A stretch of 64,000 nt of DNA from assembly GCA_010015585.1 (NCBI GenBank), contig ML975149.1; one strand, given 5' to 3'. A program made the position numbers and the translations under genes. Below, piece by piece: positions 3,601-63,300 of the stretch (the stretch's first letter is position 1; every line of letters begins with the position of its first letter). Below the pieces are notes generated by a model, which ran no database searches, had not been told where the DNA came from, and was given only the letters and a program-made list of their open reading frames with translations. Source of the stretch: Eremomyces bilateralis CBS 781.70. Taxonomy: Eukaryota.

Positions 3601-4660
3601 GCCGAAAAGGATGGCGGTTCCGCGTGCTTTGGCCCCCGTAAGGATTCCCGAGGCTGCTCACCCCCAGCAATCTCCCCAGCAATTCACCCACAAATAGCGA
3701 GGCAAACACCCGGTAACCACAGGTCATTGGATAGCCCCGGAGCAATTTGATGGTGGGTACCATTTGACCGCGGTGCTCCACGAGAAACGTCGGGAACACG
3801 TTCTCTGGCTCGGTCGAAGTGTGATCGTTCCGTGGGCGCCTTCTCGGGCCTTGGTTCCATGGATGGGAGATCTAGCTGAGGGTCACGGAGGTGACGGATA
3901 GTATAATACGTGTCGGATGAAATGATTTTCGACCTTCAAAAGCACTCTGACTCCCTTTCGGCCGTTTCGACATCTGCCCCTTTAAATTGCTTTGTCTGCT
4001 TCTGAGATTTGGTTCCGTGAGTTGTGTGACTCGAGTCCAAGAACAAGCAAGTCAAAAAACGACATATCAAACCGAACACCCCATCCCCTTTTGGTTCGAC
4101 ACCGAATTCAAATCTCCAAGCCGCAGAAGCTGCAGAAGCTGCAGAAGCGGGCGTCCATCCACCACGCCCACGTCCGAAAGCACAACGTTCATACGTCGCC
4201 CACGTCAACCAGTCATCCCGCGCCTCTAACTCAGTCTGAGACCGCTCTTCCACACGACTTTACCGCCTCTTGAGATATAAGATATCACATTCCTCTTGCC
4301 GCCCGATTTTTCTTCCTGATCACGGAAAGGTTTATGTCCATGTTAGACTTTTCAGTCGTGCATATCATTCGAACCAAACCAAATCTTGGTGGTCGGAAAC
4401 ATTCGCATATCACCACGACCATTTTATCAACTTGCGCTCAGCCCAGTCCCCCGATCTCGGCTGATTTCCGTGGCTCCTCCGCACCCCACGACACGCCATC
4501 CAGCTGAGCTGTGCACACTCGTCATAGTCGCGTCGACGGCCACGCCACACCCAAACACGTATCGAACCAGAACCAGAATATATCAACAACGTCACCAGCC
4601 CTGGTGACGGTTGTTTTCAACACCACCCAGCGTCCCAAACCTACGCGAAAGTCATTCACC

Positions 4661-5140
4661 ATGCATTTCTTCGACTCACCCTCACCGAACTCCTCCTCCA
4701 CCACCATCACCATCGGCTTCTCCACCAGCCCTTCCTCTATCCGCTCTTCCTCCTCGACCTCCTCGACCTCCTCGACATCCTCCACCTCTTCCTCCTCCGA
4801 TAGCACCTTCACCTGCGCATTCCCGTCATGGCCGGCCAGCAGCACGCTCTCATCTTCATGTCCCTACACGGGCTCACCGACCCCTTCCTACCTTGAAAAC
4901 CCACCGAGCTCCTTCATCAGCGACGAGGACCTCTTCGGCGATCTGGAGCCCATGCTGCTGACCGAGGCGCCCGCTCCACCGCGGCAGTACCATCAGCAAG
5001 TGGCGCAGCCCTTGTTGCCACTGTATGCCAGCGCAAGGCCGTACCCGGAGAAGAAGAAGCGGAGACGGAGTAGCGGAAAGAAGGCTGGGAAGGCGAAGAC
5101 CAATATGGAGACCATCCTGGAAGCCAAGGAGTCCCTTTAA
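4661..5140 (+). CDS. Small Ser-rich hypothetical protein (159 aa, intronless) with a C-terminal basic NLS-like tract
   Basis: ATG in good context (ttcaccATG, 4661) and C-ending codon bias. Motifs TCAFPSWP and SSFISDEDLF resemble a Pezizomycotina hypothetical family from memory. KKKRRRSS lies near the C-terminus. Confidence 0.75.
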   Translation: MHFFDSPSPNSSSTTITIGFSTSPSSIRSSSSTSSTSSTSSTSSSSDSTFTCAFPSWPASSTLSSSCPYTGSPTPSYLENPPSSFISDEDLFGDLEPMLLTEAPAPPRQYHQQVAQPLLPLYASARPYPEKKKRRRSSGKKAGKAKTNMETILEAKESL

Positions 5141-11800: not shown

Positions 11801-14800
11801 GAGTCTTTATTCGTCCAAAAAAAGGCAGAGCTTTCCGTCAAATGCTTTTCGCTTGCCAGTTTGGATTCATCCGAACCATGGTTCTCTCCGCGCGCCACAG
11901 AGGCGGTTGAGGGCGCACAAGCGCGAATGATGGAAAGCAGACTCGCAGCCGGGAACCCGCCGTTATCACCTCCTGCCAGCGGCCGAGCTACTGCTGGTAA
12001 CATGGGCCTGAAGCTCATCACCAGCTTTGGCAAAAGCGGCTTGAAACCCCCTGGTGGCGCGCTTGATGAAAAGACTCCAATGGGAGGACCAGGGGTGACG
12101 CCTATTGCCGAAAGTGCTCTCTCCCCCTCGGGAGCAGGCTGGAATGGTCCCAATGCTTTCCGCAGTATTAACCCCCATTCTCTTGGTTCGGCCCAAGCGA
12201 CCGCAACTCCTGGCGGATACTATCGGCGGAGGCGATTCCCAAGCAGAAGTTCTGTCGATCGAAATGCAGATACGACACCCATCGCCGCTACCCCTCAGTA
12301 CGGAAGCAGGATGAACACTCCACAAACGGCCATCAATGCTCCACCAGACCTGCCAGGAGAAGCATCACGCGTGAAATCCCGTAGCACTTCTCAAGGCCGA
12401 GCATCGGAGCTAGAGATTCTCTCACCAGTTGCTTATGAGCCGCCTCGAACTCTGGCATCGGCCGTATCTGAAGGTACCGGGCGTGGGCGCGTCAAATTGC
12501 CGCCACCGACGAAGAATGCGTTCAGCGGATTCAAAGAGGAAAAGCGAAATGGGTCGAGGGATCGAAAACCAGAAGACTTGCATCTGAATCTCAAGCAGAA
12601 TGTTGTGGTGGAGCCTGCCCTTGGCTCACCTGAGGGCTCGATGATCACTCATACTACAGCTACAACCGCGAACAGCTCCAAAGCCACTACGAATCGCACA
12701 CGTGCAAGCGAGGGTACAACTCGAAGTACCAAATCTGTCGATCGCCACCTCGCAGCTAGCAAAGTTCGATCCATCGACCAGTACATCAATAGCATACAAG
12801 CCGCGAACTTCCAAGCTGCACGTCAACGTTCTGAGAGTCGAAAGCGAGGGACAAGTCGGGAAGGAAAGGAGCGTGATCGGACATCTAGCGTTCACAACCG
12901 ACAATCCTCTGACTCTCGCGGTCGATCTGGCACTCGATACATCAAGCCAGCCAAGCGTTCGCCATCGTCCCCGGTCTCGATGTCACCTGATCAAGCGGCA
13001 TTGTATTCATCCCAAGATACATTTGATGCAGAAAGGTTCTACAAAGTTGGCCCAACGACTGCTTCTGAGACGACGAACACTACTCGTAGAGGCCGTAGTC
13101 GCTCCAAGGGCCCTGGTGGAACGTCTAAGACACGCTCAATATCCCGATCCCATCGCAATTCATCTGTCGAGGGCCACAGGCATCGATCAAGAAGCCGACG
13201 GCATGGAAGCTCACGGCATGAAGACTCACGGTATGGAGACTCACGGCATGGGGACTCACAGCATAGAGACGCAAGCCGCTCAGAAAGTATGGAGCGGATG
13301 GGACGCCCTGTACTCACGGACGGCCGTGGGCGGACACACCTTCGGGGTGAAGGATCTACTGGCCGTTCGCCATCCAGCCCATTACCCCTCACAACTGAAG
13401 GTCGAAGGCGGCGGGCCGAAAGTGAAGATACAGAGAAAGTCCGCAACAGACAGAGAAGCACGAGCCGCCATGCTAGGGTCCCGAATATCAGTCGAGCTTC
13501 AGCATCACGAGAAGCGAGTCTTGAAAGGCATCGAGAGCGATCCATGGAACGCATGAGAGAAAGAGAGTCATCCAGAGGCAGGCGCAGCGAGAAAGTGTTA
13601 TCACGAGTTTCAGAGAAATCACCCGAGCGCATCCCTCGCCCACTTCAAGCGCCAACAAAACCGACATTTCCAAGAGTAGAGACGACTTTCACAGAGGTCA
13701 AGCCGCTGACGAAGCGGGAGCTTGCAGCAAAAGAACTTGAAGAGCGACGACTTTCACTGGCGAGACGACCTTCTGCTCCTGCAATCCCCCATCCTGATGA
13801 GCTTTTTCGGCCAACCCTGAGCAACCGCTCCTTTACCGACATTAGTCCTTCCGGACCTGAATCGCACACCCGGGAGCCCTCATCCTCCATCAGTGAGAAG
13901 GATGTATGGCGCAGTCCGCTGGACAATGATGCGCCCCCCCAGCGGCGGGCAATAAAGACGAATGGGACGAGCACATCGTCAGTCCCTATTGGGCTTCCAG
14001 CAACTCCAAGTGCCATGAAACACCCAAAGTACATGAGTCCTAATACCGAGAACGATAGTGTCCCTTCTGTGCCTGCTATTCCGCCCGAACTTTCCAATCA
14101 AAGTCCAAGTGCCCAGCAGGATTCCGATCCACTATTTACTCTCCCGGCCACTACATACGGTCAACTAACGAAAGCCGACATCCAGCGTTCCGCATCTGTT
14201 CCGCTTGAGCAATCACTTGGAGCATCTGCAACCTCTCCAGCGAGATTAGGTGCTCGACGTGAGTCAGTCTCTACGAGGTATCCTGGCCATTCAAGAGTAC
14301 CTTCTGCAGAGTCCCCTCAGCGCAGTCCACCGATGCCTTCGCCCATCGCTTCAATTGGCGAGACCCTTGCTGCGTCACATCAGAAACCGCAGGTTCGGGA
14401 ACAAAATGTCTTCACTGTAGACAAGCCAAAGTTTGGTAAAGTTCCTAGTCCTACCCCCACGCCAGTCCTCCCCGAACTGCAACACCTTTATTCCCCTCCA
14501 CCGCCACCGCCTCCACCGTCTTTATTCCGGGGCAGCACCGCCACGGGAATTTCATCACAAGGTGTCATCAACATTGGCATAGACAGCAACAATTCGCCGC
14601 CTGCTTATGGCGACTCTCCACGTGTCTATTCCACCAGCACGCAGAGCTCACGCACAGGAACTCCCGCCGTCCACGATCCTAACCTTGCCTCCTCCCCTGC
14701 CCAGGGTCATCGTCGTGGTCGTGGCTCCGTCTCCGAGACCGTCGGCCAAAAGCTTCGCAGCGTCCGCGACCGAATCCGTAGTACTAGCCGCGGTCGCAAT

Positions 14801-15217
14801 AACATGAGCCCCGGAAATGATGCCCTTTCAGCCGGTGCCAGCCCGTACGAGTCGGTGCCTCCGCCATTCACCTTCCCGCCCACTGGCAGCCGGACCATGA
14901 GCCCAAACAACGCCGAGCCGAACAGCCCGGAGCGTCCATACACGAGTCATGGCGGCGGACAAGCGGCGACTCCGCATCCGGAAGTAACCATTCCTGCTGG
15001 ACCGGGCGTAGGTGTCGTGATGGGGCCGGAATCATCTCCTGGGCCAGCATCTGCGGGTGCGGAGCAGAGGGGACCGAGGCCAAATTTGCCGTATCAGGGA
15101 TATAGGAATCCGAAGGAGATCCGAGCAAATATGCCACCTGACCAACTGCAGTTGGGTGTTACAAATTCAGCGTATTTGGCAGGAGGGATGGCTCCGACGC
15201 AGGGTGGGAATGGGTGA
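8879..15217 (+). CDS. Large WD40-repeat protein with a central alpha-solenoid (Gemin5-TPR-like) segment and a long Ser/Arg/Pro-rich disordered C-terminus
   Basis: Exons 8879-9413, 9880-10003, 10059-10364, 10459-11375 and 11436-15217 join in frame through GT..AG introns. WD motifs: TIVWDL, LRVWSI, TCVWDV. Helical segment: EAFVQSLLAKGDIHPAVALLLGFGEHDEAVEVY. Confidence 0.85.
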
Positions 15218-16138
15218 ACGGTTGGTGGCAAGATCGAGGCTTCGAACGGCCTCTTAACGGCCTTTTGTGAGCTCGAAGGGGTACTCGAAATTAACTAAGC
15301 AGCTTAGAAGAAAATAGGGGCTATTGAAAACCTCCTCGTTCATGTTCACAGCACCTTATTTTGGTACTTTATGTTTGGAGTCCGGGTGTAGCAAATTTGA
15401 TATTGAAGCGGTTTCGTTTTGCTTTTCAATTCGTTTTATATTCGGCCACGGCATGATATCTTCTATTCTTCGTGTTTTGGTTCTTCGAAGGGCATGACTT
15501 TGGCATTTAGCGATGGATCTGGGACTTTGGGACGACTGGACGACCGCGTATTCATCGATTTGCTCAAATTTTCCCTAGTCATGTTGCGGGCCCTAGCTTG
15601 AGGGATAAGCGAGCCGCAGAGTTTGCGTTATGTGTTCTAGCAACGGGCAAGGAACGGGAGGCATGGCATGGCATGGAATGGGCACCAGAATGAAAAACCT
15701 CCCCCAGCGTTTCACTAGAGCGGGCAGAGCGATCTGCATCGGGTTATTCACCATCGGAGTCGCGATTCTGTAGCCTAGGGCGATTGAATTGTAATTGGAG
15801 TATCTGAGCGGTCAACAGAGCAGAATCGCTCGTGAACAGTGATATCCGTAGAAAGCTTGAGAGAGCGGGGTTAAGCGCGTAACTCGGGATCTACACCTGC
15901 AGTCACGAAACGGCGTCCTTGGCGCGAATTGTTTCGCTTCGGTTGACGTTGTAAGCGCCGCACTTAGCCCCTGGATTCTCGGAGGAGTAGGGCTGCAGCG
16001 TGTCTGCTTCGCCTACGCATGCTCAAGCGGGGCAGGCTCAGCCACAGACACTCGACACATGTAGACGCCGGTATGCAGAGGGTGCATCAATGCCCAAACG
16101 CGGGATGATGATCACGTCGACTTGTCGTGTGTCCGAAT

Positions 16139-18030
16139 TCAAGGCGGCGCTCCAGCAGCTCTCCCAGCCGCACTCACCGGAGCGGCACCGCCATCCCCCG
16201 CTCCCCCTCCCTTCCCCCCTCCCCACCTCCCTCTCCCCCGTCCACCTCTCCCCCCATGTCCCCCTCTCCCCCCCTGTCCCGCCCCTCCGCCACCCCCCAC
16301 CGTCCCCTTTCCCCCCTTCTCCCTCCTCACCAACACCTCCACCGCCCCCTCCGCCACCTTCACCGGACTCGCCGCCACCGCGGCCATCAACCCCTCGCTC
16401 GTCGCAAACTCCGCATACGCGTAGCCTTTCTTGCGGTCGATTTCGCAGCTGACGACGGGGCCGTGGGCGGCGAGGGCGGTGGTGAGGAGGTCGGTGGTGA
16501 TGCCTTGAGAGGGGTTGGCGTGTTTGAGGAAGGCGTGGGTGATGGTAGTGGTGGTCAGGGGTGGGGGTGCGGTGGATTTGCGGGAGGTGGAGGGTGCGGT
16601 CGATGGAGTGGATGGGGGTGGGGTTGGTTGAGCGGCGGGAGTGGGGGTGGGTGTCTTTTTGAGGATCGTGGGCGAGGGTTGCGCGGATTGTGCGGCGGAA
16701 TGCTTGGTAGATGGCGTGGTTAGGGGTTGTGCGGTCGAGCCGATATTGTTGGGTTTATCGACGATCGTCGCGTTGGCATTCGCGGCCGCCTTTGCCGCAC
16801 CTCGAGGACCCCGCGTGCGTGGACCTTTAGCTGGTCTCCCGGTCTCCTTTGCCGATCCTGCCGCCGCCCTGCCTGGGGTCGCTGCCGAGGCTGAAGAGCC
16901 ATCTAAAAGCGCTGCTGGGCGCGGAGACGCCTCGCTGTCGGCCTTCGCAGCCGGTTCACGGCTCCCGGGGGTGCTGGGAGCTGGCACGACGCCTTTTCCG
17001 CGCGGTCCCCGGCTCGGTAGCACGCCCAGATCACGCTGTACGATCTTCGCTGCGAGGCTTGCATTTCCGCGCTCCCTTCTTCGTTCGGCGGATGGGCCGG
17101 TCGGAACCGTAGTGGCTCCGCCTTGTGCCTGGGTAGCCGCGGCGGCGGCGGCTTTCGATGATGCCGGAGATTCCTTGGTGAGGACTCTCACCGGCGTTTT
17201 ATCGGCTTTCGCTCCGCGTTTGGACCTGCTGGGTGACGCAGCCACCTCCTTCGACGCCTTCGCCGCCTTCTTGTCGGCCGCCTTATCGGCCTTTGCGTCC
17301 TGCTGCGCGTGCTTCCCTCCTTTCTTGGACTTGGCGGCTTCCTTGGCGGCTTCCTGGGCGGCCTTCTTGTCACGCAGATGTTGAATCAGCGGCGTGATGG
17401 TGACTTTCTCGGCGGATTTGGATGTGGACGCCTCGCCCACGGCGTCGATGGGCGCGGGTTTTGTGATGGGGTTGGTGAGGCTCTCCAGGAAGGCCTTGAA
17501 GTCCGGATCTTGATCGATTAGGCCTTGGCGTTGGTCGACCTTGCGCTTGCCGGATGGGACTTTCTGCAGCAACGCGATTTCGAGGACGGGTGGTCCGATA
17601 AGGGCGGGGTCGCGCGTAGTGTTCTTCGAGTCGACGAATTGTGTCTCCTTGACATGTTGGTTTAAGGCGAAGATATGTGCCTTATCGGTGACTCGGAGAT
17701 AGGCTCTAGAGGGCAGAGAGGGGTTCGCAGCACTGTCCATGAATTAGCGACGCACCAAATACACCGTCTAACTTCTTGGACGTACTCAGTAGAGATACTC
17801 CCTGGCCGATACGACACCCAATCGACCTTCCCCGCTCCGCATTTCCACTCACCGCCCAAGGCCGCTTCGAACTCATCCTGAGTAAGTCCCGGGGCGAGTC
17901 GACGGATCACGATCTTGAGCTTCGGCGACGCGGGTTTTGGAGGCTTCTGAGGGGCGTTTTTCTGGAGAATGGCCGTGGGCATTGGTAAGAGTCCATTTTG
18001 AGAGGGTGCTCCCTTTCCGCTTGGAGACAT
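16139..18030 (-). CDS. UPF3: Nonsense-mediated decay factor UPF3 (Smg4/UPF3 RRM-like domain) with a C-terminal RRM-like domain and RGG tail
   Basis: Exons 18030-17786 and 17732-16139. The N-terminal KLKIVIRRLAPGLTQDEF...PSRAYL...GPPVLEIA matches UPF3. The C-terminus has an RNP1-like KKGYAYAEF and RGG repeats. Confidence 0.85.
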
Positions 18031-26632: not shown

Positions 26633-26643
26633 CGAACGGTAAG

Positions 26644-38008: not shown

Positions 38009-38480
38009 TTTGGGAGTGTGGGGTGGAGCGGGTAGGTAATATTCCAGGGAAAGGGAATGGAATGTGAGGGTATACACAGAGACTGACAGTGGCATTCGTG
38101 AAGGGTTCTGGAGCGAGATATCTACACCAAAAGTAGCAGAATATATGACTATTTCCACAACCAGATAAAAGATGTCCTCGCGGCGTCATGGGTTAGGGAC
38201 ATACGTCCACCACGGCAACACGACCACCACTACTGCCTCCATTTACTGCTTATTGGCGGGCTGGAGACGTATTTAAGTATAACTCGACCATCCTGGAAAT
38301 ATATTTAGTGTAGGCACTCATGCTGCAGCTTAACTTCATAACGATTATTCAATTAATTCATAATCTTCGTAAACCAATACCGATGCGTGCTGTGAAGCAA
38401 TGCTGTCTATTCAATATCCCACCAATACCAGTCAATGAACCCCTATCCAAAGTACAAACCTTCTACACTTATATCCAACT

Positions 38481-45200: not shown

Positions 45201-45537
45201 TCGCCCAGGCCTCCCCTCCCAACGCCGCCCCTGGGCGCTCGAAGAAGAGCACGCGCTGATGGACGGGCTGGACCGCGTTAAGGGGCCGCACTGGAGTCAG
45301 ATCCTCGCACTGTACGGGGCAGGCGGCAGCATCAGCGAGGTGCTGAAGGAGCGGAACCAGGTGCAGCTAAAGGACAAGGCGCGGAACCTAAAGTTGTTTT
45401 TCCTAAAGAGCGGGATCGAGGTGCCAGTGTATTTACAGGGGGTGACGGGGGAGTTGAAGACAAGGGCACCAAATCAGGCGCGGCGGAGGGAGGAGCGGGA
45501 GAGACGGGAGAAGGAGGGCGGGGAGGATGGGGGGTGA
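42254..45537 (+). CDS. TBF1: TBF1/TRF-like telomeric-repeat binding factor (TRFH-like domain plus C-terminal Myb/telobox); start codon uncertain
   Basis: Intron 44015-44103 joins LQSLPILDNL to ATQIL...IRKANFASF...LLLELKTQGYI. The Myb domain reads RRPWALEEEHALMDGLDRVKGPHWSQIL...RNQVQLKDKARN. Confidence 0.82.
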
Positions 45538-47547: not shown

Positions 47548-48475
47548 ATGTCATCCGCCGGCCCCAGCGAACCCATCTCCGACCCGACCCCCAACACTAC
47601 CAACCCCGCCCCCGAACCAGAGATCAAGACCGAACCCACGCAACAATCAGAATCCGACAATACGCTCGTCGCCCCGGCTGATGATGCGGACGCGGAACCA
47701 TCCCTCGACGCAACGCAGCCGGACCCGATGAATCTGGACGGCGGGAACGACGTGCAGATGAACGGTACGGACGAGCGAAATGGAGCGGCACCACTGTCTG
47801 CGGCGCCGGCGGGGCCGTCAGGACCGAGGATTGCGCAGAAGAAGGATGTGACGTTGCGGGACTTTCTGGGGAAGATGGATGACTATGCGCCGATTGTGAG
47901 TTATCTCTGATATAGCCGTCTCATCGCCGCTCTAGCTGGATATAGAGACGAACCCCCTTCACTATTGCTTTATATTCGAGGCTATCTACGCAAGATCCAT
48001 GCTGTCGAAAGCAACCATCGCTGACTTCTATCTTATCTAGATCCCCGACGCCGTCATCAACTACTACCTCACCCTTGCCGGCCTCCCCCCCCCCCCCCAA
48101 ACCCCCCCCCACCTCGCCCGCCTCCTCGGCCTCGCCACCCAGAAATTCATCGCCGACATCGCGGCCGACTCCTACCAATACTCCCGCATTCGCTCCTCCA
48201 ACACCACCTCCAACAACCCGATGCAAGGTCTCGGCGGCGTCGCGACCTTCGGCACGACGGCGGGCGGACCGAGCGGGCCGGGTGCGGCGCAGGGACAGGG
48301 CGGCGGGAAGGACGCGCCGGTGGCGAAGGCGGCAAATTTGGGGGTGCAGCGGCCGGGGTATGGAGGGGGTGGGCAGGGAGGCGCGAGTGGGCGGACGGTG
48401 TTGACGATGGAGGATTTGGGTATGGCGGTGGGGGAGTATGGGGTGAATGTGAAGCGGGGGGAGTTTTATCGATGA
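47548..48475 (+). CDS. TAF10: TFIID/SAGA subunit TAF10
   Basis: Exons 47548-47895 and 48041-48475. Motifs [49 protein letters not shown] and [25 protein letters not shown]. Confidence 0.95.
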
Positions 48476-48680
48476 AGGAAGGGGGATGGATGGGTGGCAT
48501 TAATTATGGATTGCATTTCGTCGTGGAGTTTGGGACATGGGACGGACACGGGTGGATACCCCGTTGGCATCGAGGGTTCAAACTCTGAGGATTCTAGTAT
48601 ACATATGGTATCATGACTATATTCCATCGCCCTGGAACTCCGGCCAATGCGATGTCAGCGCAAATCTGCATGCACTCCGT

Positions 48681-53109: not shown

Positions 53110-56100
53110 ATGACCCAATACAAAGTCGAAGAGCTTCTGGCACTCCGAGACTCGGTCTCTGAATCCGCAGTGTCCATCGAAAAGCTCGATGTCGATGAAT
53201 CTGTGAAAGGTCAGTCTCCCTTCGGCATGATTCCAGCCAACTGTCCCCATGCATCTCAAGGCAACACAGCCATTTCCAACATAACACGGCGATGCTTATT
53301 CTACTGCGCTCAATTGTCTCGAGATGAGGGTATGCCCGCATCTGATTTGGACGAACTTCACGAGCACCATCAGGCTCGTTTTGATTCCCCGTTTCCTGCT
53401 TCCACCTCCCACTTCTCACTCTCGCTTCCCGCTTCCCTCTCACTTCTCATATCTTCCCCACTTCAAACTCACTCCAAAAAAACTTCCCTTGACCAAATTA
53501 TCACGAGATTTGTCTCTCCTTCTCTGTCTCGGTCCAACAGCGATATCATGCCGCTATATATCACAGGGAAAGGGTCTCCTGTTCGACGAATCCCTAGCCT
53601 CACCTCCAGTCACATCCGCTTGATACCACAACACAGTCGAAGGTTTACTGACAAATTCCTTGAAGAGCACGTTCTCCGACCTTCCTCCTCTGTCAATTGC
53701 ATGTCACTAAAGAGTGAGAATATTCCTCTCGACGGGAATTCGAAGGCAACCCGTGCAGTGAGTGGTCCTCCTCGGTGCGCCTCACAGCCTGTGAAGGAGC
53801 AAGTCTTTGGCCATCTGGCTGTCAAGAAACCCTCTCCGACGCCCTCTATCAAGCGTGGCAAAGCAGAACGCCTTCTCAAGGAGCACGCGTCTCCTCCGGG
53901 GATGCGTGTGACAGCGGGTGGACGAGTCGTTCCCACGGATTTCACTTCTTTCGTTGCTCCAGTTCCACCATTCCATCCTGCGGCGAGGGGTCACATGTTC
54001 GATATGCGTGCAGGAAAACCTGACAGCGCCCATCAGGCTCCAAGCCATCACTCCATTCCGCAAGGCTTCATCGGTTACGACATCAAGGGTCAGCTTTGCC
54101 AGAAAGTTGGCGACAATCTTCTTCCTGTGCAAATGATCAACGGGCTTCCCCACTTTCACTTGCCGCCGGTCAACAACTTTCCCGCAATCCCAGCGATGTC
54201 AGCTCCCACTGCTCCACCGACGGGGCAGCAATTTGCGAACCAGTTCGGGAATGGATCGTTGCCCGCTGAACCAGCCTCCGTCAATATTGATGAGCATATC
54301 ACTCACTTGGAGAATCACTACAAGTTGCTGGACAAGGAACGCCAGCAGTTCGAACGCTTTGAAGTGATTGAGAAGGAACGTGCTCCCGTTCACATGCAGA
54401 GGCAGTTGATCGAGAAGAAGCGTTGGTACATCACGGAACTTGACCGCATTCGCCGTGCTGCCAAGCAGGTCAAAGAGATGAAGGCGACAGGTGCTGTCAC
54501 TGTACCTGCAACCTTTGGCCTGGAAGCGAATCACTCCGCCCCAGCGCCTGCACCGCCTCAGCAACATGCTCCTGGTTTTATGTTCCAGGGAATGCCTCAG
54601 CAACTCGCCGCTCCGCAGGCTCACCCGATGTTTCGCCAAGGCCCTGTCATGCACTTTGAGGTCCCTCAATACGGCCCGGTCCGCTATGACATGCCTCCAC
54701 ATGGATTCTACCTTCCCAATGGAATGCAGCCTGGCATGCAGCCCGGTCCCGGTGGTTTCTTCCCAGTCAATGGAGGCATGCCGGTCCACAACTTCGGTCC
54801 GAACCCTGCAGAACCAAACGGAATAGCCCAAGCTAAGCCTTTGAATCCTGAGCAGCCTTTCGATGCCGATCAGCCTTTCAGTCGTGGCAACAATGCCGTG
54901 GAGATCAAAGACCCTCTCGAACGCCCCAAACAAGACTCTCACCTGGATCCAACCAGTCCCAGCTATGTTCCGAAGAACCTCGCCGGCACTCGCAAGGAGT
55001 CGTCTCTCAAACACTGCGACCCTGGCACGCCCACTCCTGTTGGCTCTCCGAATGATGGCCTCCCTCGCGCCGACCTTGCCAAGTACCTCGTCGGAGACGA
55101 TGGCGACAACCATCATGGCTCTCCAGAGATTCCCTCCTCTGCGGAACGGGTCAACAAGAAGTCCAGTCAATCCAGTGTCAGCACGAGTGCCTTCTTCCCC
55201 GTGAACACCCACGAGTACTCCACGAAGACCTTGTATGGGGCGCGATCTGGAGCCAACGAGGAGAACATACCATTTATGTCGTCCCCAAACGGGGAGAGAA
55301 GTGCCCCTGGGGTTCCGACGAACACGCCCGCTCCCGGAGTCGAGGCAGCCCACAGCAAGGACGGATCTCATGCGTCCGCGCAAGATCATCGTCTGTCGTC
55401 GTGGACACGAGAAAGCGGACAAGTCATGGATCTTGCTCTCAATAATGGTAATCATGATCTGAGAGCCCCCGTTCTCGACGGTCCGGCTTCTGAGTCCCCC
55501 GATCGATTCTTCACCGTACAGTTAAGCTCCGGCCGCAGCGACGCTTCGGAGGCGTCTATCAAGTCGCTTGACTTGGGCTATCTCGATGGATGGCAAACCG
55601 ACTATCGCCCGACCGAAGTCCTCCGATCCAGCAAATATCGCGAGCAATTCGGACGCGCACTTGAAGCACGACGCCGTCTTCGTGAGACAGAGCAGGGCAA
55701 ACGAAAGGATGAGCTCTCTGATGCCGAACTCATCAAATCGGGCAGCCGTCCCGAACGGCTCTTGAAGTCCGAGGAATATTGGACCGCTTTCGAAGAGGGC
55801 AATCACGCGCGGCACCAGCGCATAGTGGAGAACACGGAGAACCCCATCCCACCGCTTCCGAACGCGCCACATCTTTCACCGCGTCGCTTCGCGCTTACAG
55901 AGCCCGACTCCAACATCGAAACTCTCTCTGGGCTTCCAAGCAACGTGCAAGGCAATACTATCACGGCCTCCGAGCCCCCAAAGCGAACATATGCCGGCCC
56001 AACACAACCACTTCACGCACAGACAGCATCCGAAGCCCAGAATGCCTCCAACGTGACCACAAACGGCATCTCGGCCATTCAACCCATCAACGTGCAAGCC

Positions 56101-56694
56101 AACATGTGCAAGCCGACCAAAAGCAAGCATTGCTACCGCTCCAGCACGACTTCCGGCCGCACTCGCAATGCCTCCCGCGCTGTCTCTGCAGCCATCCGCC
56201 CGTATCCTGGCAACATGGCGTACAACGACCCGCTCCGATGCAAGTCGCCCACCAGTCCCAAAATCAGCAACGGCTGGCCTTCCCAATGCGACGGGGCTGT
56301 CGACGATCTCGCCCGCGAACTCTCGCACACCACCATGACCGCCTCCGGGCCATCCACCGCGCCCGCCACCACGCTCAACGGCACCATCAACCAAGACACG
56401 GCGTTCAAATCCCCGAAGAAAGACAAGGGCAGCGCGACGCCGTCGCCCAGCAAGAAGGAGAAAGGATCGTCGTCCCCGGCGCGGGCGAAGTTGGAGCAGA
56501 TCGCGAACAAGGTGAAGAACTTCGACAAGCGCAAAGAGAAAGGGGACAAGGAGAAGCCGGATCCGGCGACGATGGATCCGGAGCAGAAGGAGAAGCATCG
56601 GAAGGCGTGGCGGAAGCGGTTCGATCGGGTGCGGAAGGAGCAGTCGGAGGAGATTCGGAAGTATCACAATGGGCAGAGGAATTCGAATGGATGA
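53110..56694 (+). CDS. Large, mostly disordered hypothetical protein with a probable intron at 53210-53665
   Basis: A 1194-codon ORF. Conserved-looking blocks YKVEELLALRDSVSESAVSIEK, EHVLRPS and KRGKAERLLKEHASPPGMRVTAGGRVVP. Central coiled-coil and basic C-terminal helix. Confidence 0.8.
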   Translation: MTQYKVEELLALRDSVSESAVSIEKLDVDESVKGQSPFGMIPANCPHASQGNTAISNITRRCLFYCAQLSRDEGMPASDLDELHEHHQARFDSPFPASTSHFSLSLPASLSLLISSPLQTHSKKTSLDQIITRFVSPSLSRSNSDIMPLYITGKGSPVRRIPSLTSSHIRLIPQHSRRFTDKFLEEHVLRPSSSVNCMSLKSENIPLDGNSKATRAVSGPPRCASQPVKEQVFGHLAVKKPSPTPSIKRGKAERLLKEHASPPGMRVTAGGRVVPTDFTSFVAPVPPFHPAARGHMFDMRAGKPDSAHQAPSHHSIPQGFIGYDIKGQLCQKVGDNLLPVQMINGLPHFHLPPVNNFPAIPAMSAPTAPPTGQQFANQFGNGSLPAEPASVNIDEHITHLENHYKLLDKERQQFERFEVIEKERAPVHMQRQLIEKKRWYITELDRIRRAAKQVKEMKATGAVTVPATFGLEANHSAPAPAPPQQHAPGFMFQGMPQQLAAPQAHPMFRQGPVMHFEVPQYGPVRYDMPPHGFYLPNGMQPGMQPGPGGFFPVNGGMPVHNFGPNPAEPNGIAQAKPLNPEQPFDADQPFSRGNNAVEIKDPLERPKQDSHLDPTSPSYVPKNLAGTRKESSLKHCDPGTPTPVGSPNDGLPRADLAKYLVGDDGDNHHGSPEIPSSAERVNKKSSQSSVSTSAFFPVNTHEYSTKTLYGARSGANEENIPFMSSPNGERSAPGVPTNTPAPGVEAAHSKDGSHASAQDHRLSSWTRESGQVMDLALNNGNHDLRAPVLDGPASESPDRFFTVQLSSGRSDASEASIKSLDLGYLDGWQTDYRPTEVLRSSKYREQFGRALEARRRLRETEQGKRKDELSDAELIKSGSRPERLLKSEEYWTAFEEGNHARHQRIVENTENPIPPLPNAPHLSPRRFALTEPDSNIETLSGLPSNVQGNTITASEPPKRTYAGPTQPLHAQTASEAQNASNVTTNGISAIQPINVQANMCKPTKSKHCYRSSTTSGRTRNASRAVSAAIRPYPGNMAYNDPLRCKSPTSPKISNGWPSQCDGAVDDLARELSHTTMTASGPSTAPATTLNGTINQDTAFKSPKKDKGSATPSPSKKEKGSSSPARAKLEQIANKVKNFDKRKEKGDKEKPDPATMDPEQKEKHRKAWRKRFDRVRKEQSEEIRKYHNGQRNSNG

Positions 56695-58292
56695 AAGGAG
56701 TTGACTGTCCGAGTCCGGACACTCGACGTCTTACCCGGGCTTCTCTACGTTCAGAGGCGACTTCTTTTCATATCATCAATTGCTGTTTCTCAGGATACAT
56801 TTCTCACCTTCGGCAAACACCAGACGGCAGGTTGAGCACTCTTCATACGATGCACAAGGATCCAAAAGCACCATTGTATACCATCAGCACCATTACACAT
56901 GTTTATTCCCCTTTCGTTTCAGTCATCACTTTTTCCCTTTGCCCGCCTTTGACATTCATGCAGCAGAGATTGAACAGGCTGCACCACACACTGTCTCATT
57001 GCGGTTCACGACAGCAGCAAGGACAATCCGCACACCCACGGCACGCATGAGATGGATCCCATCGACACCTTTTTTCCCCACAACACCACACCACGCACAG
57101 CATCACACTCCAAACGAATACCGAAAGTAGCAGCAATGTATGGATAGCGCACGAGCGAACACAGATGAGATAGCAATAATAGCAGTAGCTAGCAAATGCA
57201 AAATCATGGATCATCACATTTCCGCTTTTGCACATTATTCAGGCTGATTGATCATTGACGTGCTTGCTGGCGATCTCGACTAATCGAGGCAGGCGGGGGA
57301 TCGTCGGTTTGCTGGTGACTAGTGCAGTCGGTAGCTCTATCGGCACGAGTAATATTCCATGTCCTTGACTACTGGATGATGAGGCTGAATTGATGTGTGG
57401 TGCGGAGAGCAGATGGACCCGAGAAAGGTAACCGTGGATAGATGATGGAATGAGGTAATTGAAGTGAAGCAGAACTAGAATTTGGAACGGAACAGGAACT
57501 GGAACTGGAAGAGGTCGCAAGGCAATGAGGCAGAAATGATTGTGGCCTCACGGTTTCAGCCAGAGCCTTTGAGCTGCAGGACCAGACGTTACTTCGATTC
57601 GGGTCATGATGCCAGGAATAGAATATTAAAATTCTTGAAGGCAAAATGACATGGAGATGTCTTACAAAATGGAATGGGAATTGGTCATTATTGTGTGGTG
57701 GATATCGCTGATAAATTGGAGGGATAAGATGGCTGACATCCCGTCAAACATCGAGGAGTCCGCGATATATGCCTCATATGCCTAATATGCCTTACTAGTT
57801 ACCGCAGCCGGTGCTGCACTGTGCTCTACTGTTAGAATCCACTGCTGAGCCACAGTTCTTGCCTCGCCCCGCCACTCCTCCTCTCTCCTCTCTCATACTG
57901 ATTCCTCTCCTCCTTCCCTTCCCCCGACGTTACAACCGCATTGTTAAGCAAAGCCCCATACGGTCAGGATACCCCCAGATCCACCACATTCCTCTCTTCC
58001 CCCATCGCTACATTGATTGCTATCCGCCCATCTTCTTCTTCCTCTTGTTTGACTCTTGTTTGTCCTCGACCATAAGTACGGTTCATCATCCTTTCACTTG
58101 CCGCTCTTATTCATCAGGATTCGCAATCATCGTGGGTTCACCGCACTCCACTCCCCAACGTGCCTCACCCGGTCGAGCAATGGCTCCCTGTGTTAGAAGA
58201 TAGCATCAAGTCCTTTCGTTTCCCTTCCCATCACTCTCAATTCATCTCACCCTATCCATAACCACCCGTCCATCCCGTCCACCTCCTCCATC

Positions 58293-60395
58293 ATGACCCA
58301 GTTCTTCTCCTCCAACCCATCCTCCCTCTCCTCCGAGAAGCGCACCTTTTCCGGCCTCCCCCTTTCCTCCAACAAGTCCGTTACCAGCTCCAACAGCCAA
58401 GTCTCCCAAAAAATCAAGTCCTTCTTCCGCATCAACAGCCTCGGAAGCAACCACGCCGACCCCAAGCACCATGGCGCCCACGATCCCTCCTCCCACCTCT
58501 CCGCCCCCTCCAAACCCGACTCCAAACCCGGCTTCCGCCAATCTCGCTTCCTCCCCCACATCGGCCGCAACCGCAGCACCACCGTCGCCTCCGAAGGCCA
58601 CCCCCTCGACGAAACCATGTCCCCCACCGCCAATGCCAATCCCTACTTCATCCACCAAGGCCCCCCCGCCCTCCGCCATCACAACGACGGCAGCGTGCCT
58701 CCCTCCCCCCCGGACACCCCGCAGATGGCCCAAGCTAAAGCCGACGCCGTCAGCGGCGCCAACGACCAGGCCATCACCGCCGGGAAGGAGGAGCTGGCCC
58801 GCAAGCTGCGACGGGTAGCGTCCGCGCCGAACGCGCAGGGGCTGTTCGCCGGCTCGAAAGGCGCGGAGCGGCCGCAGACCGCGGAGCTGGGGAAGGAGCC
58901 GCTGGTGCAGTACCACCACGCCAACGCGTCGGCGCTGAGCATGGTGGAGACGACGCCGGCGGCGACGGGGGGGGTGTTGACAGGGAGTGCGGAGCATCTG
59001 CCGGTGCCGAGTATCACGGGGTTGCCGACGCCGGGGCAGATTCGGAATAGCGTGGCGTTTCGGAGGACGTATAGTTCGAATTCGATTAAGGTGCGAAACG
59101 TGGAGGTGGGGCCGGGGAGTTTTGATAAGATTAAGATGATTGGGAAGGGGGATGTGGGGAAGGTGTATTTGGTGCGAGAGAAGAAGTCCTCGCGACTGTA
59201 CGCCATGAAGGGTATGTTTCGGTGTAAATGGGTTGGAGGGAGCGTGGCTAACGTGCAGAGCAGTTCTCAGCAAGAAGGAGATGATCAAGCGGAATAAAAT
59301 CAAGCGGGCGCTTGCGGAGCAGGAAATTCTCGCGACGAGCAATCATCCTTTCATCGTCACGCTATACCATTCCTTCCAGTCCGAGGACCACCTCTATCTG
59401 TGCATGGAATACTGCAGCGGCGGCGAGTTCTTCCGAGGTAAGCCAATACATGTGCCGCAATTCCTATTCCAAGGCTAATCCGCTCCAGCCCTTCAAACCC
59501 GTCCCAACAAATCCGTCGACGAAGACGCCGCTCGCTTCTACGCTGCCGAAGTTACCGCTGCTCTCGAATATCTCCACCTTATGGGCTTCATCTATCGCGA
59601 CCTCAAACCCGAGAACATCCTCCTCCACCAGTCCGGCCACATCATGTTATCGGACTTCGACCTCTCCAAACAATCCGACGCCGGCGGCAAGCCCGGCATG
59701 GTGCTCGGCCGCAACGGCAGCTCGAGCAACGGGCTCCCCGCCGTCGACACGAAGGCGTGCATCGCGGATTTCCGCACCAATTCGTTCGTCGGGACCGAGG
59801 AGTATATTGCGCCCGAGGTCATCAAGGGGTGCGGACATACCAGTGCGGTCGATTGGTGGACCCTCGGTATCCTGATCTACGAGATGCTGTACGGAACCAC
59901 CCCGTTCAAGGGGAAGAACCGCAACGCGACGTTCGCGAACATCCTACGCGATGAGGTGCCTTTCTCTGAAGGATCCGGCGCGCCGTCAGTATCCACGTAA
60001 GTTTCGACCCTACCCATGTCTATTCTATCAACCCGACTAACCCCCCTCCCAGCCTCTGCAAATCCCTCATACGCAAACTCCTCATCAAAGACGAACTCCG
60101 CCGCCTCGGCTCCCGCGCCGGCGCCTCCGACGTCAAAGCGCACCCCTTCTTCCGCAGCACACAATGGGCGCTGCTCCGGCACATGAAGCCGCCGATCATC
60201 CCCAACCCGGCGCGTGGAATCGAGACGGTCAACTTCCGCAACGTGAAGGAGAGCGAGAGCGTGGACATCGGGGCGGCGAGGATTAAGGGGGTGCCGTTGG
60301 ACTCGGGGCTGGAGACGCCGGGGAACGAGATCCCCGATCCGTTTGAGGAGTTCAATAGCGTGACGTTGTTGCATGAGGGGGATGGGAGGCATTAG
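58293..60395 (+). CDS. nrc-2: AGC-family Ser/Thr kinase NRC-2 (FPK1/KIN82 flippase-kinase family)
   Basis: Exons 58293-59211, 59264-59437, 59489-59996 and 60053-60395. Motifs [21 protein letters not shown] (DFD in place of DFG is typical of this family), [24 protein letters not shown] and [11 protein letters not shown]. Confidence 0.93.
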
Positions 60396-63300
60396 ATGGG
60401 TGATCTGGCTTGGGGGACTAAAAGTCGTGAAGAGGTGGAAGGGGAGATGGGTGTGGAAGCTCGAGCCGGAAGAAGAGAAAGACGAGGAACGTACGACGTG
60501 CAGCTGCAGCCATCCGGAAGCATGCAACGGCCTCCTTCACGACACGCTTTCCATGAGCATATTTTTCTTTCTTCATACGTCCGCGGCGCCAGGATAGATG
60601 ATCGGCGTCGGTGTTTTTTTTTCGCACAACTCATCCGGGGGGGGTGTTTCGGCTTGCGTTTACTTTTGCTCCCTTCTTTCGTTCGATGCGCGGCGCTGCT
60701 TTCTACCCTGCCCCTGGGCCGCCGCAATCCATGACGCGCGCGGGCGATCTATTTGATGGCAAGAGGCCGCGATGGATGGAGTGTGTGGGATGGACGGGAG
60801 TGAGGGGATTGACGTGTATACTGTACAGCTCTATCGTTAGTCTTGTTGCTTTTCGGTCGCTCGCTCGCTTAGTCGCGTCGCGTGGCGTGGCTGGCGTGAG
60901 CAAGAGCCGGCCACGGTCATGGGAAAAGTGCAGGACAGAATGTAGATTCCATCGCTGGGATGATTTGGTTTTCGTGGTGTGCAGTGCCGGTGCTTGATCG
61001 ATCGTCCGTCGCTTGGCAATTCGGTGATGTCGAGCGACTTGCCATCCCAAGTTCGCGTGTTTTATCCACGGCGGTTGGTTCTCCCATTTTCCTCCTGGCG
61101 AACAATTCCCCTGAATGCGCAGTTGTCAGGTTCCAGCGGGCCACGAGGTTAAGCTTGGAACACCGAGGCAACTCCTAGCAGGTGGACGACGAGCTGGTAT
61201 GCATGGATAGGTCCCGTGGTGGGAATTTTAGGAGATGGTGTCTTGGATCTCGCCTCATGAGGGGCCCATGTAAATGCAGGATGTGGGTCGTTCTCACGGA
61301 GGTGGTTTCTATCAGTCCCTCTCGGATCATATATTAGTTATTGTATTTTTAAAAGTGCTGGAACCCGATTTCTCCAACTCCAGTTAGTTACTACTACTAC
61401 TGTAGCTCTGCTCTGAACTGAACAGCCAGCCGATCGTGACCAAGATCGGCACACGCACAGCTTCCCCAGACTCCCAAAGTTTAAAAGGCCTCGAAAGTGG
61501 AAACACTAGGTAGCGGTGGGGAGGGATCTAAAGCGAAAAGCGATGGATACCCGGACACTGCGAGGCTTCGAATTGGGCCTCAAAGAAACTTTAGGATCTC
61601 CGAATCTCACCCTTATCATTTCTTCGAAATCTCTACTGTGTATGGACGCGAGTGGCTTCCAAGATACCTAACTAAGTGCCTCACTGCCTCTGGGGAGCGT
61701 TCATAACGCGTTCTATCGAGATATACCCAAAATGAAGGGTATACAGGGTCTTTGTTGGTTGAACCACCCAAAATACTATGTAATTAAGCCACACATGGGG
61801 CCACAGATAGGGGCCACGGAAAGGTCGCACGTGTGGGAAAAATAGCGGTTTCGCTCAATCAGGTGATTAATGCAGCGACACAGTGGGAAAACATCATTAG
61901 ATTCCAAAAGAGAGTAGATAGATTGTCCTTGATCCTTAATGAGCGTAAAAACTACGGGAATACGCCCATATTTAAGTTCTGTATACATTCGTGGCCGTAG
62001 AGACCTTGATTTGCTCAAGACGAGCGAAAAGGCAAAGAATGAGAGGCCGGTAACATCGTGGGATGCATGATGTGCTGTCATAGTTGTGAATACTGGGTCA
62101 GGGGTAGGAAACAGAGGACCCTGAAAAACAGACAACTTGATATCTGACAGCATGGTAAATGATGGCATTTATGGAAACGATGAAAAACGGGAATCTCCTG
62201 ATCTTTGACAGGTGTACCGCGCAAGCATTATTATTTGGTGAAATGTGACTAGTGAATGATGGCGTGCAGGGCGCAGGCAGACGGGAAGCCGGAAACCGCA
62301 TCAATCATAGCATCTGGTTTAGCCCTCACCCACGACTCTCAAGGTCGAATCCTCCATTTCATCCAAGACTTTCCGGTCTTGAACTCTTGAGTCTCGGCCA
62401 GACCATCCCTAATTGTGGCTCCGTCGGTGAGGCTTACATAGTATTGCTCGGTGCTCCTGCATTGCGCTGCACGGCTCTCGAGGAGTCGAGGCCCATCAAA
62501 CCAGCATCAAGCTGGGGAAGTCCGGGGCGGTGATCGCTCCATCCCCCAAAAATGCGCAATCCCCCCTCCCCCCCTCGCCGGCGGAGCGTCTACCGTCCGG
62601 GCAGACGGTGCCCCAGGGAGGGACGGTAGACGCCGGTGTTTTTGACCAGATCTCTATGGGTCTACGGAATACAGGATACCTACTACGTAAAGAAACAGCC
62701 TCGACTCTCTTCATGATCAAGACATTTTGTTGAGCGGACCAATCAGAACGCAGGATCTGCGATCTTGGGTGGAGTCACTACTGGGGGTGGACCCGATCAT
62801 CTCCCGCTTGCTGCCTACCACGCACGGAATATGGGGTACCAAGCTCTTGGTACCGAATGGGACTAACTGTATTCAGTAGCTAGTTATTAGTCTTGACTCC
62901 TAAGGGTCTGACGGGCATTCATTATGAGGGTGAAGGTCTGAAGGACATCCTACAATTGATCCGCTCTGACTTTCTGAGCAGAAGAGGGGACTGCGATCAT
63001 GTACCAAGTTCCAAGCTACGTTAAGTTCGGGTTAGTGCCCCCGCATTGTGTCGCACGGAGTCTCTAGTAATCGAGTAGTAGTATAGCCAGTCCGATGCCC
63101 GAATGCCCCGTTATTCCTCTCCAGTCTCCAGTCTCCTGATTCCTAGCTGGGACTCGTCAGGTTTAAACTTTATGCCATCAGTTATGTAGAAGTGGCAGGC
63201 TTCTGAGGCCGTATACGTATCACTGACTCGTGCCGCTAGCATCAGGGGATGCCCAGAGTCCAGACGGTATGTACAGAGAACTCTACCAAAAGTCTTCGTG

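Follow-up and report, generated by a model that had tools for sequence, protein, structure and literature searches.

C-rich and G-rich block pairs at the 3' ends of genes in Eremomyces bilateralis

Along the stretch of the Eremomyces bilateralis CBS 781.70 genome presented above, strongly C-rich blocks are repeatedly followed by strongly G-rich ones, which raises the question of what positions such pairs and what kind of force builds them. We re-measured the pairs, related them to gene ends, silent sites, protein composition, introns and untranslated regions (UTRs), and compared them with orthologous loci of other fungi. The E. bilateralis data come from one 64-kb window, the whole stretch analyzed, rather than from the whole genome.

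Block pairs and gene ends

All 11 C/G pairs listed by an earlier sequence-only reading proved to have strong GC skew, from -0.32 to -0.77 in the C blocks and from +0.27 to +0.74 in the G blocks, against a window background with a mean of -0.035 (sd 0.23) in 250-nt windows. G/C counts were, for example, 18/139 and then 155/29 across 16190-16740, 94/300 and then 139/21 across 37080-38030, and 22/99 and then 131/34 across 48040-48500. With a C-to-G dyad defined by a skew of -0.2 or lower in the left 250 nt and +0.2 or higher in the right 250 nt, the 64-kb window contained nine dyads, versus one in the reverse, G-to-C order; shuffling of 125-nt segments yielded 1.2 +/- 1.0 dyads and reached nine in 0 of 300 shuffles. 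A plain jump scan likewise found eight upward versus two downward jumps of at least 0.5, and three versus none of at least 0.6. Weaker jumps were close to parity (13 up versus 11 down at 0.4 or more, 18 versus 21 at 0.3 or more) because each block has an outer edge too. Dyads numbered 9-13 in 56 kb, roughly one for each gene, and cumulative AT skew across the window carried no consistent partner signal.

The arrangement had been regarded as independent of gene strand, which does not hold: the coding-strand G-rich half faces the stop codon at all 13 gene-assignable dyads, on + and - genes alike. Its proposed location near gene 3' ends was supported: at 9 of 16 gene ends the pivot precedes the stop by 184-321 nt, and 12 of the 16 gene ends in the window have a C excess of at least 100 followed by a G excess of at least 55. 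The blocks are the 3'-terminal parts of E. bilateralis genes (Table 1).

Within a gene, a C-rich, G-avoiding ramp of ~0.5-1 kb flips to a G-rich, C-avoiding block, typically ~270 nt before the stop and, in the sharpest cases, within tens of bases. The G block can finish at the stop codon or run on into the 3' UTR for as much as a few hundred bases; at 4/16 gene ends it is over no more than 30 nt from that codon. Across the six long open reading frames (ORFs) of the window, position-3 skew was about 0 beyond -1100 nt, reached about -0.4 by -300 and stood at +0.4 to +0.6 over the final 300 nt. Position-3 A (.13-.21) and T (.15-.26) remained nearly constant across gene bins while C and G swapped. 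Many of the strongest dyads belong to convergent gene neighbours whose stops lie close together, for example MON2 and POL4, 475 nt apart. Exceptions are the dyad of the SIT4-type gene and one at 46814, neither of which lies within 300 nt of a stop.

Table 1. Block pairs in the 64-kb window, with the genes that carry them and G/C counts
Feature	Coordinates	Strand	Blocks and pivot	G/C counts
GEMI5-like gene, 3' end	14400..15300	+	C ramp, then G block; pivot ~271 nt before stop 15215	position 3: 4/21, 7/18, then 16/3; last 240 nt 34/5
UPF3, 3' end	16142..16760	-	coding-strand C block 16460-16740, G block 16190-16400 ending at stop codon; pivot in RRM-like fold, 293 nt before stop	position 3: 1/34, then 33/3
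SIT4-type phosphatase	18789..19780	+	C block takes in C-rich first intron 18789-18857; G block begins in ~100-aa insertion of catalytic domain; exceptional, mid-gene, last exon without G-richness	
AGC/NDR-type kinase A	22340..23630	+	C block includes candidate intron 22817-22889; flip ~100 nt before stop 23188; G block extends >300 nt into 3' UTR, which makes up most of it	
Rpp40	24700..25333	+	C, then G block ending at stop codon; pivot 321 nt before stop	position 3: 2/28, then 28/4
MON2 C-terminal tail	37080..38120	+	C block 37080-37720; G block 37780 to ~112 nt past stop 38006; coding by annotation, conserved among orthologues	position 3: 0/33, then 34/3 and 30/1
POL4 (Pol X family)	38200..39600	-	coding-strand C block 39200-39600 (HHH domain), GC-rich middle of neutral skew, G block 38484-38730 (thumb domain) running on into 3' UTR	position 3: 1/34, 2/31, 2/35, then 27/7, 33/0
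TRF-domain (Tbf1-like) gene, 3' end	44700..45650	+	pivot 303 nt before stop 45535; G block ends at ~+117	
TAF10, last large exon	48040..48610	+	C, then G block	position 3: 1/36, then 27/4
Unknown 1233-codon ORF (unk1233), 3' end	56100..56700	+	pivot 277 nt before stop; G block ends at stop codon	56/10
ORF 58197-59294	58240..59300	+	C, then G block; no family match backs its status as a gene	42/7
Kinase B, 3' end	60000..60470	+	C block includes candidate intron 59997-60052, then G block	

Silent sites, proteins and non-coding DNA

The sequence-only reading saw synonymous codons flip from C-ending to G-ending across a pivot, and the position-3 counts of MON2, POL4, UPF3, Rpp40 and TAF10 bear this out, with an almost complete flip. 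Fourfold sites in neutral coding DNA were uniform (A.24, C.28, G.25, T.24); the corresponding values for C blocks (C.66, G.14) and G blocks (G.69, C.07) are partly circular, as the block codon sets were picked by skew. Less circular are the twofold tests, in which NNR codons of C blocks shun G (G fraction.35 versus.56 in neutral DNA) and NNY codons of G blocks shun C (C fraction.35 versus.57). The force works on bases, not on codon optimality.

Protein composition is affected as well: C blocks contained proline at.112 and threonine at.103, and G blocks glycine at.174, glutamate at.090 and arginine at.102. In columns aligned with orthologues, C-block residues were shifted towards C-rich codons in MON2 (p = 4e-4) and POL4 (p = 2e-4) and G-block residues towards G-rich codons in MON2 (p = 0.003) and, less clearly, POL4 (p = 0.07), in a comparison in which a MON2 control stretch was shifted as well (+0.26, p = 0.002). 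As had been argued, protein sequence is not the sole cause, since fourfold and twofold sites carry the bias as well, and so do some of the introns and UTRs.

The wider claim that non-coding DNA shares the bias stands in part. It is correct for the 3' UTRs of MON2, POL4 and kinase A (first 100 nt past the stop, G/C 41/10 in MON2 and 30/12 in POL4) and for introns of C blocks, including the candidates 22817-22889 in kinase A (G/C 0/36) and 59997-60052 in kinase B (3/22). It fails for UPF3, Rpp40 and unk1233, in which the G bias is lost at the stop codon, and for MRE11, where two RNA-supported introns in G-skewed exons are without G skew (G/C 5/9 and 9/11). Among 61 candidate introns, skew correlated with that of flanking third codon positions (Spearman 0.32, p = 0.01), in an imperfect set that retains the false intron 39105-39177, contradicted by an RNA contig. 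The first intron finder misplaced one acceptor (47896-47945 against 47896-48040). Intron support came from a presumed-RNA run with spliced joints, the unstranded contigs of which inform on introns only, without strand, transcript ends or levels.

The flip in other fungi and related skews

The comparison set comprised 54 distinct metagenome loci with POL4 orthologues from other fungi, at 45-56% identity. Position-3 skew was positive over the last 240 nt in 52/54 of these loci and negative from -900 to -300 in 50/54, and the first 100 nt past the stop were G-skewed in 46/51. Other ORFs of at least 300 aa in the same loci displayed a positive shift in 60 of 73 cases (Wilcoxon 6e-10), with six strong flips and no reverse flips; the first 100 nt past the stops of non-POL4 ORFs were without average G skew (mean +0.02, positive in 34/72). 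Thirty long ORFs of other fungal loci yielded a position-3 profile of the same shape as that of the six window ORFs, and GC3 climbed from 0.5 to 0.6-0.7. Cumulative-skew pivots in the weaker metagenome ORFs had a median of -541 and a spread of -700 to -88, a noisy estimate for which 30 of 69 ORFs passed.

That fungal genes carry GC skews of opposite sign at their 5' and 3' ends was described by McLean and Tirosh (2011, BMC Genomics 12:638), who reported that the skews reach fourfold sites and UTRs, affect amino-acid usage and correlate only weakly with expression in C. albicans. The window pattern is this fungal gene-anchored GC skew, here close to saturation. In both, the coding strand favours C upstream and G at the 3' end of the gene, the bias reaches fourfold sites and the choice of amino acids while A and T change little, and protein or translation does not explain it. 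E. bilateralis is not in the species list of that study and departs from its averages in that the bias is visible in single genes, nearly saturated, and changes sign in a step. In long E. bilateralis genes it is the 3' end (the last ~1 kb) that anchors the C bias, whereas McLean and Tirosh placed this bias at the 5' end; since gene length was used to scale their profiles, 3' anchoring of the C bias would not show in them. A limited literature search found no later paper on this fungal skew pattern.

A human counterpart appears in the accessible part of Ginno et al. (2013), which describes terminal GC skew with 3' R-loops and links them to termination. Within that part, the likeness lies in positive coding-strand GC skew at 3' ends and in gene-dense settings. 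The fungal G block, unlike the human skew as described there, lies largely in the coding region, follows a mirror-image C block and is characterized here from sequence.

Candidate causes

From these patterns we infer, tentatively, that the gene-anchored skew may well arise from transcription-coupled, strand-specific substitution bias, possibly with R-loops. The bias would flip sign where elongating Pol II enters a terminal, termination-competent phase, and in the terminal block changes towards G would build up on the non-template strand. A possible route is the formation of abasic sites on the non-transcribed strand while it is exposed, and their bypass by Rev1/Pol zeta, with C inserted opposite; transcription-coupled repair (TCR) would clear lesions from the transcribed strand, and R-loops would raise changes on the non-transcribed one. 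As G-rich RNA favours R-loops, the process could reinforce itself, which would account for sharp edges as well as for near-saturation. In the upstream C block it may be the template strand that accumulates changes, for instance via antisense transcripts begun at the 3' end.

The biochemical components of this route are known from yeast. According to the accessible part of Owiti et al. (2018), Rev1 inserts C opposite abasic sites, TCR repairs the transcribed strand and changes on the non-transcribed strand are R-loop-dependent. Together with the work of Kim and Jinks-Robertson cited there, this abasic-site mutagenesis provides a way for non-transcribed-strand bases to become G; the systems described in that part are reporters in repair mutants rather than an evolutionary footprint, and the route alone does not explain the upstream C block. 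Of two other mutational sources, one-strand deamination (C to T plus A to G) was set aside, as T is depleted at G-block fourfold sites (T.08), and RIP-type mutation was rejected because the blocks are GC-rich.

Several observations sit uneasily with transcription-coupled substitution bias. The upstream C block demands an extra assumption, either antisense transcription or another repair regime, and a position-3 ratio of ~30:1 with sharp edges is extreme for mutation bias alone. Against a purely transcription-coupled process stand the G blocks that stop at the stop codon and the non-POL4 post-stop DNA, unskewed on average. Against the preferred mechanism as such stand the unskewed MRE11 introns, the location of the SIT4-type gene's dyad and the 46814 dyad off gene ends, and the weak expression correlation in C. 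albicans (McLean and Tirosh 2011). Mutation bias is not separable here from selection or biased fixation by sequence alone.

It is conceivable, if unlikely, that the C-to-G dyad consists of back-to-back, self-reinforcing R-loop zones that buffer convergent transcription. Sense polymerases would reach a zone G-rich in their own RNA only past the pivot, and antisense polymerases coming from the 3' end would likewise cross the pivot before they reach the zone that is G-rich in their RNA, the sense C block. The zones would grow by abasic-site bypass on the exposed strand until silent sites saturate. If so, the pivot would be a fossil mark of a Pol II state change ~270 nt before the stop, and E. 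bilateralis a natural 'hyper-skew' model in which the switch can be read directly from the sequence.

Selection on transcription is a somewhat unlikely alternative to substitution bias. Nascent RNA rich in purines and in G across the last 300-500 nt would form stable RNA:DNA hybrids, slowing Pol II and aiding 3'-end formation in a gene-dense genome, and the C-rich, G-poor RNA upstream would form weak hybrids and little local structure. The near-saturated bias with sharp edges agrees with such selection, as do the frequent convergence and close stops of the strongest cases, the presence of all 16 G-quadruplex-type motifs of the window within blocks, and the weak folding of C blocks taken alone in four of eight cases (-9 to -40 kcal/mol per 200 nt versus -54 in neutral coding DNA). 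Retention of the flip at the same place in 52/54 distant POL4 orthologue loci also speaks for it, but persistent mutation bias equally predicts a conserved position. Mammalian pause elements lie downstream of the poly(A) signal, whereas most of the G block precedes the stop codon, and such selection would need to prevail over the protein composition of conserved domains. The idea of CTP scarcity or polymerase spacing put forward by McLean and Tirosh is a variant of this alternative.

Selection on translation or on the mature mRNA, by which the last 80-100 codons would favour G-ending and the preceding ones C-ending forms in a ribosome- or stop-tied manner, is improbable. It could account for the fairly tight pivot-stop distance (-184 to -321 in 9/16), for the several G blocks that end exactly at the stop and for the unskewed MRE11 introns within G-skewed exons. 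However, neutral coding DNA has no fourfold codon preference, the bias is present in C-block introns and several 3' UTRs (with the kinase A G block mostly UTR), and twofold codons leave the complementary base rather than move to one codon class.

The sequence-only reading had suggested strand-asymmetric mutation or biased gene conversion at meiotic break hotspots or replication origins, a model that now appears very improbable. The raised GC3 of the dyads, their symmetry about a point and their negative-to-positive polarity, which is that of an origin-type skew jump, are compatible with it. Yet origins are typically intergenic and spaced tens of kb apart, whereas the pivots, 9-13 in 56 kb or roughly one for each gene, fall within coding sequence at a set distance from the stop codons that they track. 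The flip is kept in 52/54 POL4 orthologue loci at 45-56% identity, and A and T are hardly altered in what is mainly a C/G swap. Further evidence against the model comes from Zymoseptoria, another Dothideomycete genus, for which the accessible part of the published work describes hotspots as not conserved and GC-biased gene conversion as weak or absent.

Selection for long C:G fold-back in the mRNA, also suggested earlier, is barely credible: composition permits extensive C:G pairing, and UPF3 (z -2.2) and Rpp40 (z -3.2) fold better than within-block shuffles, but the other six of eight native dyads do not (z -0.8 to +1.7, and -3.2 to +1.7 overall), five of eight are no more stable than full shuffles, and the POL4 blocks lie 500 nt apart.

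Whatever their cause, such blocks skew codon-usage, GC3 and selection statistics, give spurious antisense ORFs and coincide with short-read assembly breaks. The near-saturation of E. bilateralis gene by gene makes this fungus a much better object than genome averages, and the sharp pivots at a set distance from the stop, together with the reshaped tails of conserved proteins, make it suited to separating mutation bias from selection. Its blocks also offer a way to ask if a footprint of transcription termination can be read from DNA.

Skew blocks at gene 3′ ends

In a 300-nt composition profile of the window, stretches with a skew (G versus C balance) below −0.4 were repeatedly followed by stretches above +0.4, with GC raised to 0.6–0.7, and all 11 C/G pairs listed in the sequence-only reading were borne out (C blocks −0.32 to −0.77, G blocks +0.27 to +0.74). 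Taking as a dyad a switch point, or pivot, flanked by 250 nt with a skew of −0.2 or lower on the left and 250 nt with +0.2 or higher on the right, we counted nine C-to-G dyads versus one in the opposite order; shuffles of 125-nt segments averaged 1.2, and nine was reached in 0 of 300. A jump scan gave eight upward versus two downward jumps at ≥0.5 and three versus none at ≥0.6, an excess absent at lower cut-offs (13 versus 11 at ≥0.4, 18 versus 21 at ≥0.3). Downward jumps are simply the outer block edges, between skewed and neutral DNA. The C-to-G feature of gene ends is genuine and striking.

Within confirmed reading frames, the flip at the third codon position (position 3) was nearly complete (see table), including the synonymous flips claimed from sequence for MON2 and TAF10. 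The order on the coding strand was invariably C then G. The G half lay toward the stop codon at all 13 dyads with an assignable gene, genes on the − strand (UPF3, POL4) being oriented just as those on the + strand. The pattern had been described as independent of gene strand, an appearance that arises solely because a C-to-G dyad is its own reverse complement. Placement near gene 3′ ends, also proposed earlier, holds: the pivot lay 184–321 nt upstream of the stop in nine of 16 gene ends (the other seven at −91, −102, −423, −513, −516, −631, and −668), and 12 of the 16 had a C excess of at least 100 followed by a G excess of at least 55. Relative to the stop, the G block ended between −8 and +29 in four genes, between +79 and +136 in four, and further out in the rest. 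In kinase A, an AGC/NDR-type kinase gene, the flip came ~100 nt ahead of the stop, with the G block extending >300 nt into the 3′ UTR. Across six long ORFs of the window, silent sites were unbiased beyond ~1.1 kb from the stop; closer to it the skew ramped to about −0.4 and then flipped over the last 300 nt, and GC content at position 3 climbed from ~0.5 to ~0.7 along the same ORFs. There were exceptions: the SIT4-type gene carries its dyad mid-gene, within a low-complexity insertion, and has a neutral last exon; the dyad at 46814 has no confirmed stop nearby; and dyads are weak or absent in MRE11 and the carbonic anhydrase gene.

Position-3 counts and coordinates of features in the window
Feature	Position	G/C, C block	G/C, G block	Remark
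MON2		0/33	34/3, 30/1	position 3
POL4		1/34, 2/31, 2/35	27/7, 33/0	position 3
UPF3		1/34	33/3	position 3
Rpp40		2/28	28/4	position 3
TAF10	47167-48472	1/36	27/4	position 3; upstream exon in ORF 47167-47895
TAF10 intron	47896-48040			145 nt, RNA contig
Candidate intron	22817-22889	0/36		all bases
Candidate intron	59997-60052	3/22		all bases
SIT4 intron	18789-18857			C-rich by eye
SIT4-type insertion	18960-19265			~100 aa, in frame
UPF3 C-terminus (−)	16142-16540			
Tbf1-like gene	42197-45534			
Tbf1-like intron	44014-44102			89 nt, GT..AG
Gene without assigned family (−)	48500-49600			82-nt intron 48723-48804
Spliced joint	40528-40852			325 nt, CT..AC
RNA contig ends	37804, 38003, 38329			adapter letters
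DNA contig break	48098 (48090-48102)			C run
G-quadruplex-type motifs	16214-16323, 19177-19258, 37301-37432, 37940-37972, 39473-39494			
G-quadruplex-type motifs, further	45204-45231, 45488-45568, 48085-48119, 48355-48378, 58701-58720			

Gene assignments came from 162 stop-to-stop ORFs scanned against Pfam, which identified a GEMI5-like gene, UPF3, a SIT4-type phosphatase, two kinases, Rpp40, a beta-carbonic anhydrase, MON2, POL4, a TRF-domain gene, TAF10, and MRE11. Two of the ORFs, POL4 and MON2, matched Eremomyces bilateralis CBS 781.70 proteins at 100% (nearest other relatives ~55% identical for POL4 and ~45% for the MON2 tail); annotation treats the MON2 tail as coding, and 97–100% of it is spanned by orthologues. 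Contigs from a sequencing run behaving as RNA gave 13 spliced joints in 36900-56899. One connects a 727-codon ORF to the TRF-domain ORF, which therefore form a single Tbf1-like gene; its N-terminal half is long and of low complexity, and the 727-codon ORF has no family match. The CT..AC joint, one side of which has just 30 letters, could either belong to the POL4 transcript as a long intron or be an artefact. The deepest RNA contigs in this region (1387–2145, a depth that poorly reflects expression) cover the − strand gene without an assigned family. The insertion in the SIT4-type catalytic domain, which we take to be one from its presumed difference from yeast SIT4, coincides with the dyad and is Pro/Ala-rich in its first half and Glu/Gly/Arg-rich in its second. 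The UPF3 C-terminus comprises an RRM-like fold (weak RRM_1 match, E 8.5e-4) and then a Gly/Arg-rich tail, the bulk of the UPF3 G block. RNA contigs stopped in or beside the MON2 G block and DNA-run contigs broke in the TAF10 C block; short-read assemblies seem to be broken by stretches of extreme skew.

Base-level bias in coding and non-coding DNA

Fourfold sites in neutral coding DNA outside the blocks (the MON2 5′ part, MRE11, and others) were near uniform (A.24, C.28, G.25, T.24), and judged at these sites of the window, the fungus shows no general codon preference. The skew persisted at synonymous sites within blocks (C.66 and G.14 in C blocks; G.69 and C.07 in G blocks), figures that are partly circular because blocks were selected by skew. 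Among twofold codons, the G fraction of NNR was.56 in neutral DNA, against.35 in C blocks and.91 in G blocks; for NNY, the C fraction was.57,.83, and.35 in the same order (all contrasts p ≤ 1.3e-4). The complementary base is thus avoided, beyond mere preference for one base. Position-3 A and T were nearly flat along genes. Proteins were affected as well: C blocks were rich in Pro and Thr, G blocks in Gly, Glu, Arg, and Val. In columns aligned with orthologues, C blocks shifted to residues with C-rich codons (MON2 p = 4e-4, POL4 p = 2e-4) and G blocks to those with G-rich codons (MON2 p = 0.003, POL4 p = 0.07); a MON2 stretch intended as a neutral control was likewise shifted (+0.26, p = 0.002).

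The bias had also been said to reach introns and non-coding DNA, which is partly so. Candidate introns in C blocks were C-rich, and 3′ UTRs were G-rich in MON2 (G/C 41/10), POL4 (30/12), and kinase A; on the other side, the G bias was gone at the stop codon in UPF3, Rpp40, and a 1233-codon ORF without known family, and two RNA-supported MRE11 introns inside G-skewed exons had no G skew. Intron skew tracked flanking position-3 skew (Spearman 0.32, p = 0.01) over 61 candidates, seven from the window and 54 from other loci, drawn with an imperfect finder that had one window candidate contradicted by RNA. All 16 G-quadruplex-type motifs of the window (four G runs, each of at least three) lay within blocks on the G-rich strand, which is the coding strand for G blocks and the template strand for C blocks.

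Recurrence in other fungi

Searching metagenome contigs with a POL4 alignment yielded 80 loci, 54 of them distinct; they were chosen via one gene, are phylogenetically related, and are unannotated, and an ORF end in them need not be a gene end. Position-3 skew over the last 240 nt of POL4 was positive in 52 of 54 orthologues (mean +0.30, at least 0.6 in four; +0.79 in the window), negative from −900 to −300 in 50 of 54, and the first 100 nt past the stop were G-skewed in 46 of 51. The last 240 nt of 73 other ORFs at these loci, each of at least 300 aa, had a position-3 skew of +0.20, up from −0.14; the rise was seen in 60 of them (p = 6e-10), with six strong flips versus none in reverse; their first 100 nt past the stop had no average skew (positive in 34 of 72). 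The 3′-anchored ramp and flip also appeared in 30 ORFs of at least 600 aa. Large upward jumps were ~3x denser in the window (1.25 versus 0.43 per 10 kb), and large jumps in the POL4 loci numbered 25 up versus 14 down. Many of these loci had a skew of −0.3 to −0.7 at 100–400 nt past the POL4 stop, as expected if a conserved convergent neighbour has its own G-rich 3′ end, like MON2.

Candidate causes and relation to the known fungal pattern

The position is conserved, silent sites, proteins, and part of the non-coding DNA are affected, and the complementary base is avoided; together these observations point to a base-level force that persists and is bound to the transcription unit, not to a past event. 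We favour a strand-specific substitution bias whose sign changes near the transcript end. On an exposed non-transcribed strand, bypass of abasic sites by Rev1/Pol zeta, which inserts C, is a known way of turning any base to G. Owiti et al. (2018) describe a transcribed strand protected by transcription-coupled repair and R-loops raising non-transcribed-strand changes. G-rich RNA for its part promotes R-loops, and Ginno et al. (2013) associate positive GC skew at the 3′ ends of human genes with R-loops and termination. Such a feedback could explain saturation and sharp edges. The upstream C block would require a mirror process on the template strand, e.g. via antisense transcripts.

Selection that favours pausing or termination competes seriously with this substitution bias. 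A cause at the level of the ORF is kept alive by G blocks that cease right at the stop codon. Selected C:G fold-back in mRNA, proposed from sequence, fared poorly: native folding energy was mostly no better than that of within-block shuffles at eight dyads (z −2.2, −3.2, +1.2, −0.8, −0.2, +1.7, +0.65, and +0.44). The suggested hotspot- or origin-centred process, and with it a recombination or replication footprint, is rejected because pivots are anchored to stop codons, occur about once per gene, and are found again at the corresponding place in orthologues from distant species.

For ~60 fungi, McLean & Tirosh (2011) described an upstream C bias of the coding strand that gives way to a G bias at the 3′ end, with fourfold sites and amino-acid usage affected and A/T flat. 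They proposed, without proof, either transcription-coupled mutation that is phase-specific or avoidance of C tied to CTP supply. No later paper on this pattern was found in the literature searched, which was thin on subscription journals. The window shows the pattern very strongly, in a species absent from that paper's list, and adds that the C bias of long genes is anchored at the 3′ end and that the sign change is step-like. The C-to-G blocks at gene ends in E. bilateralis are an extreme new case of a described, unexplained fungal pattern.
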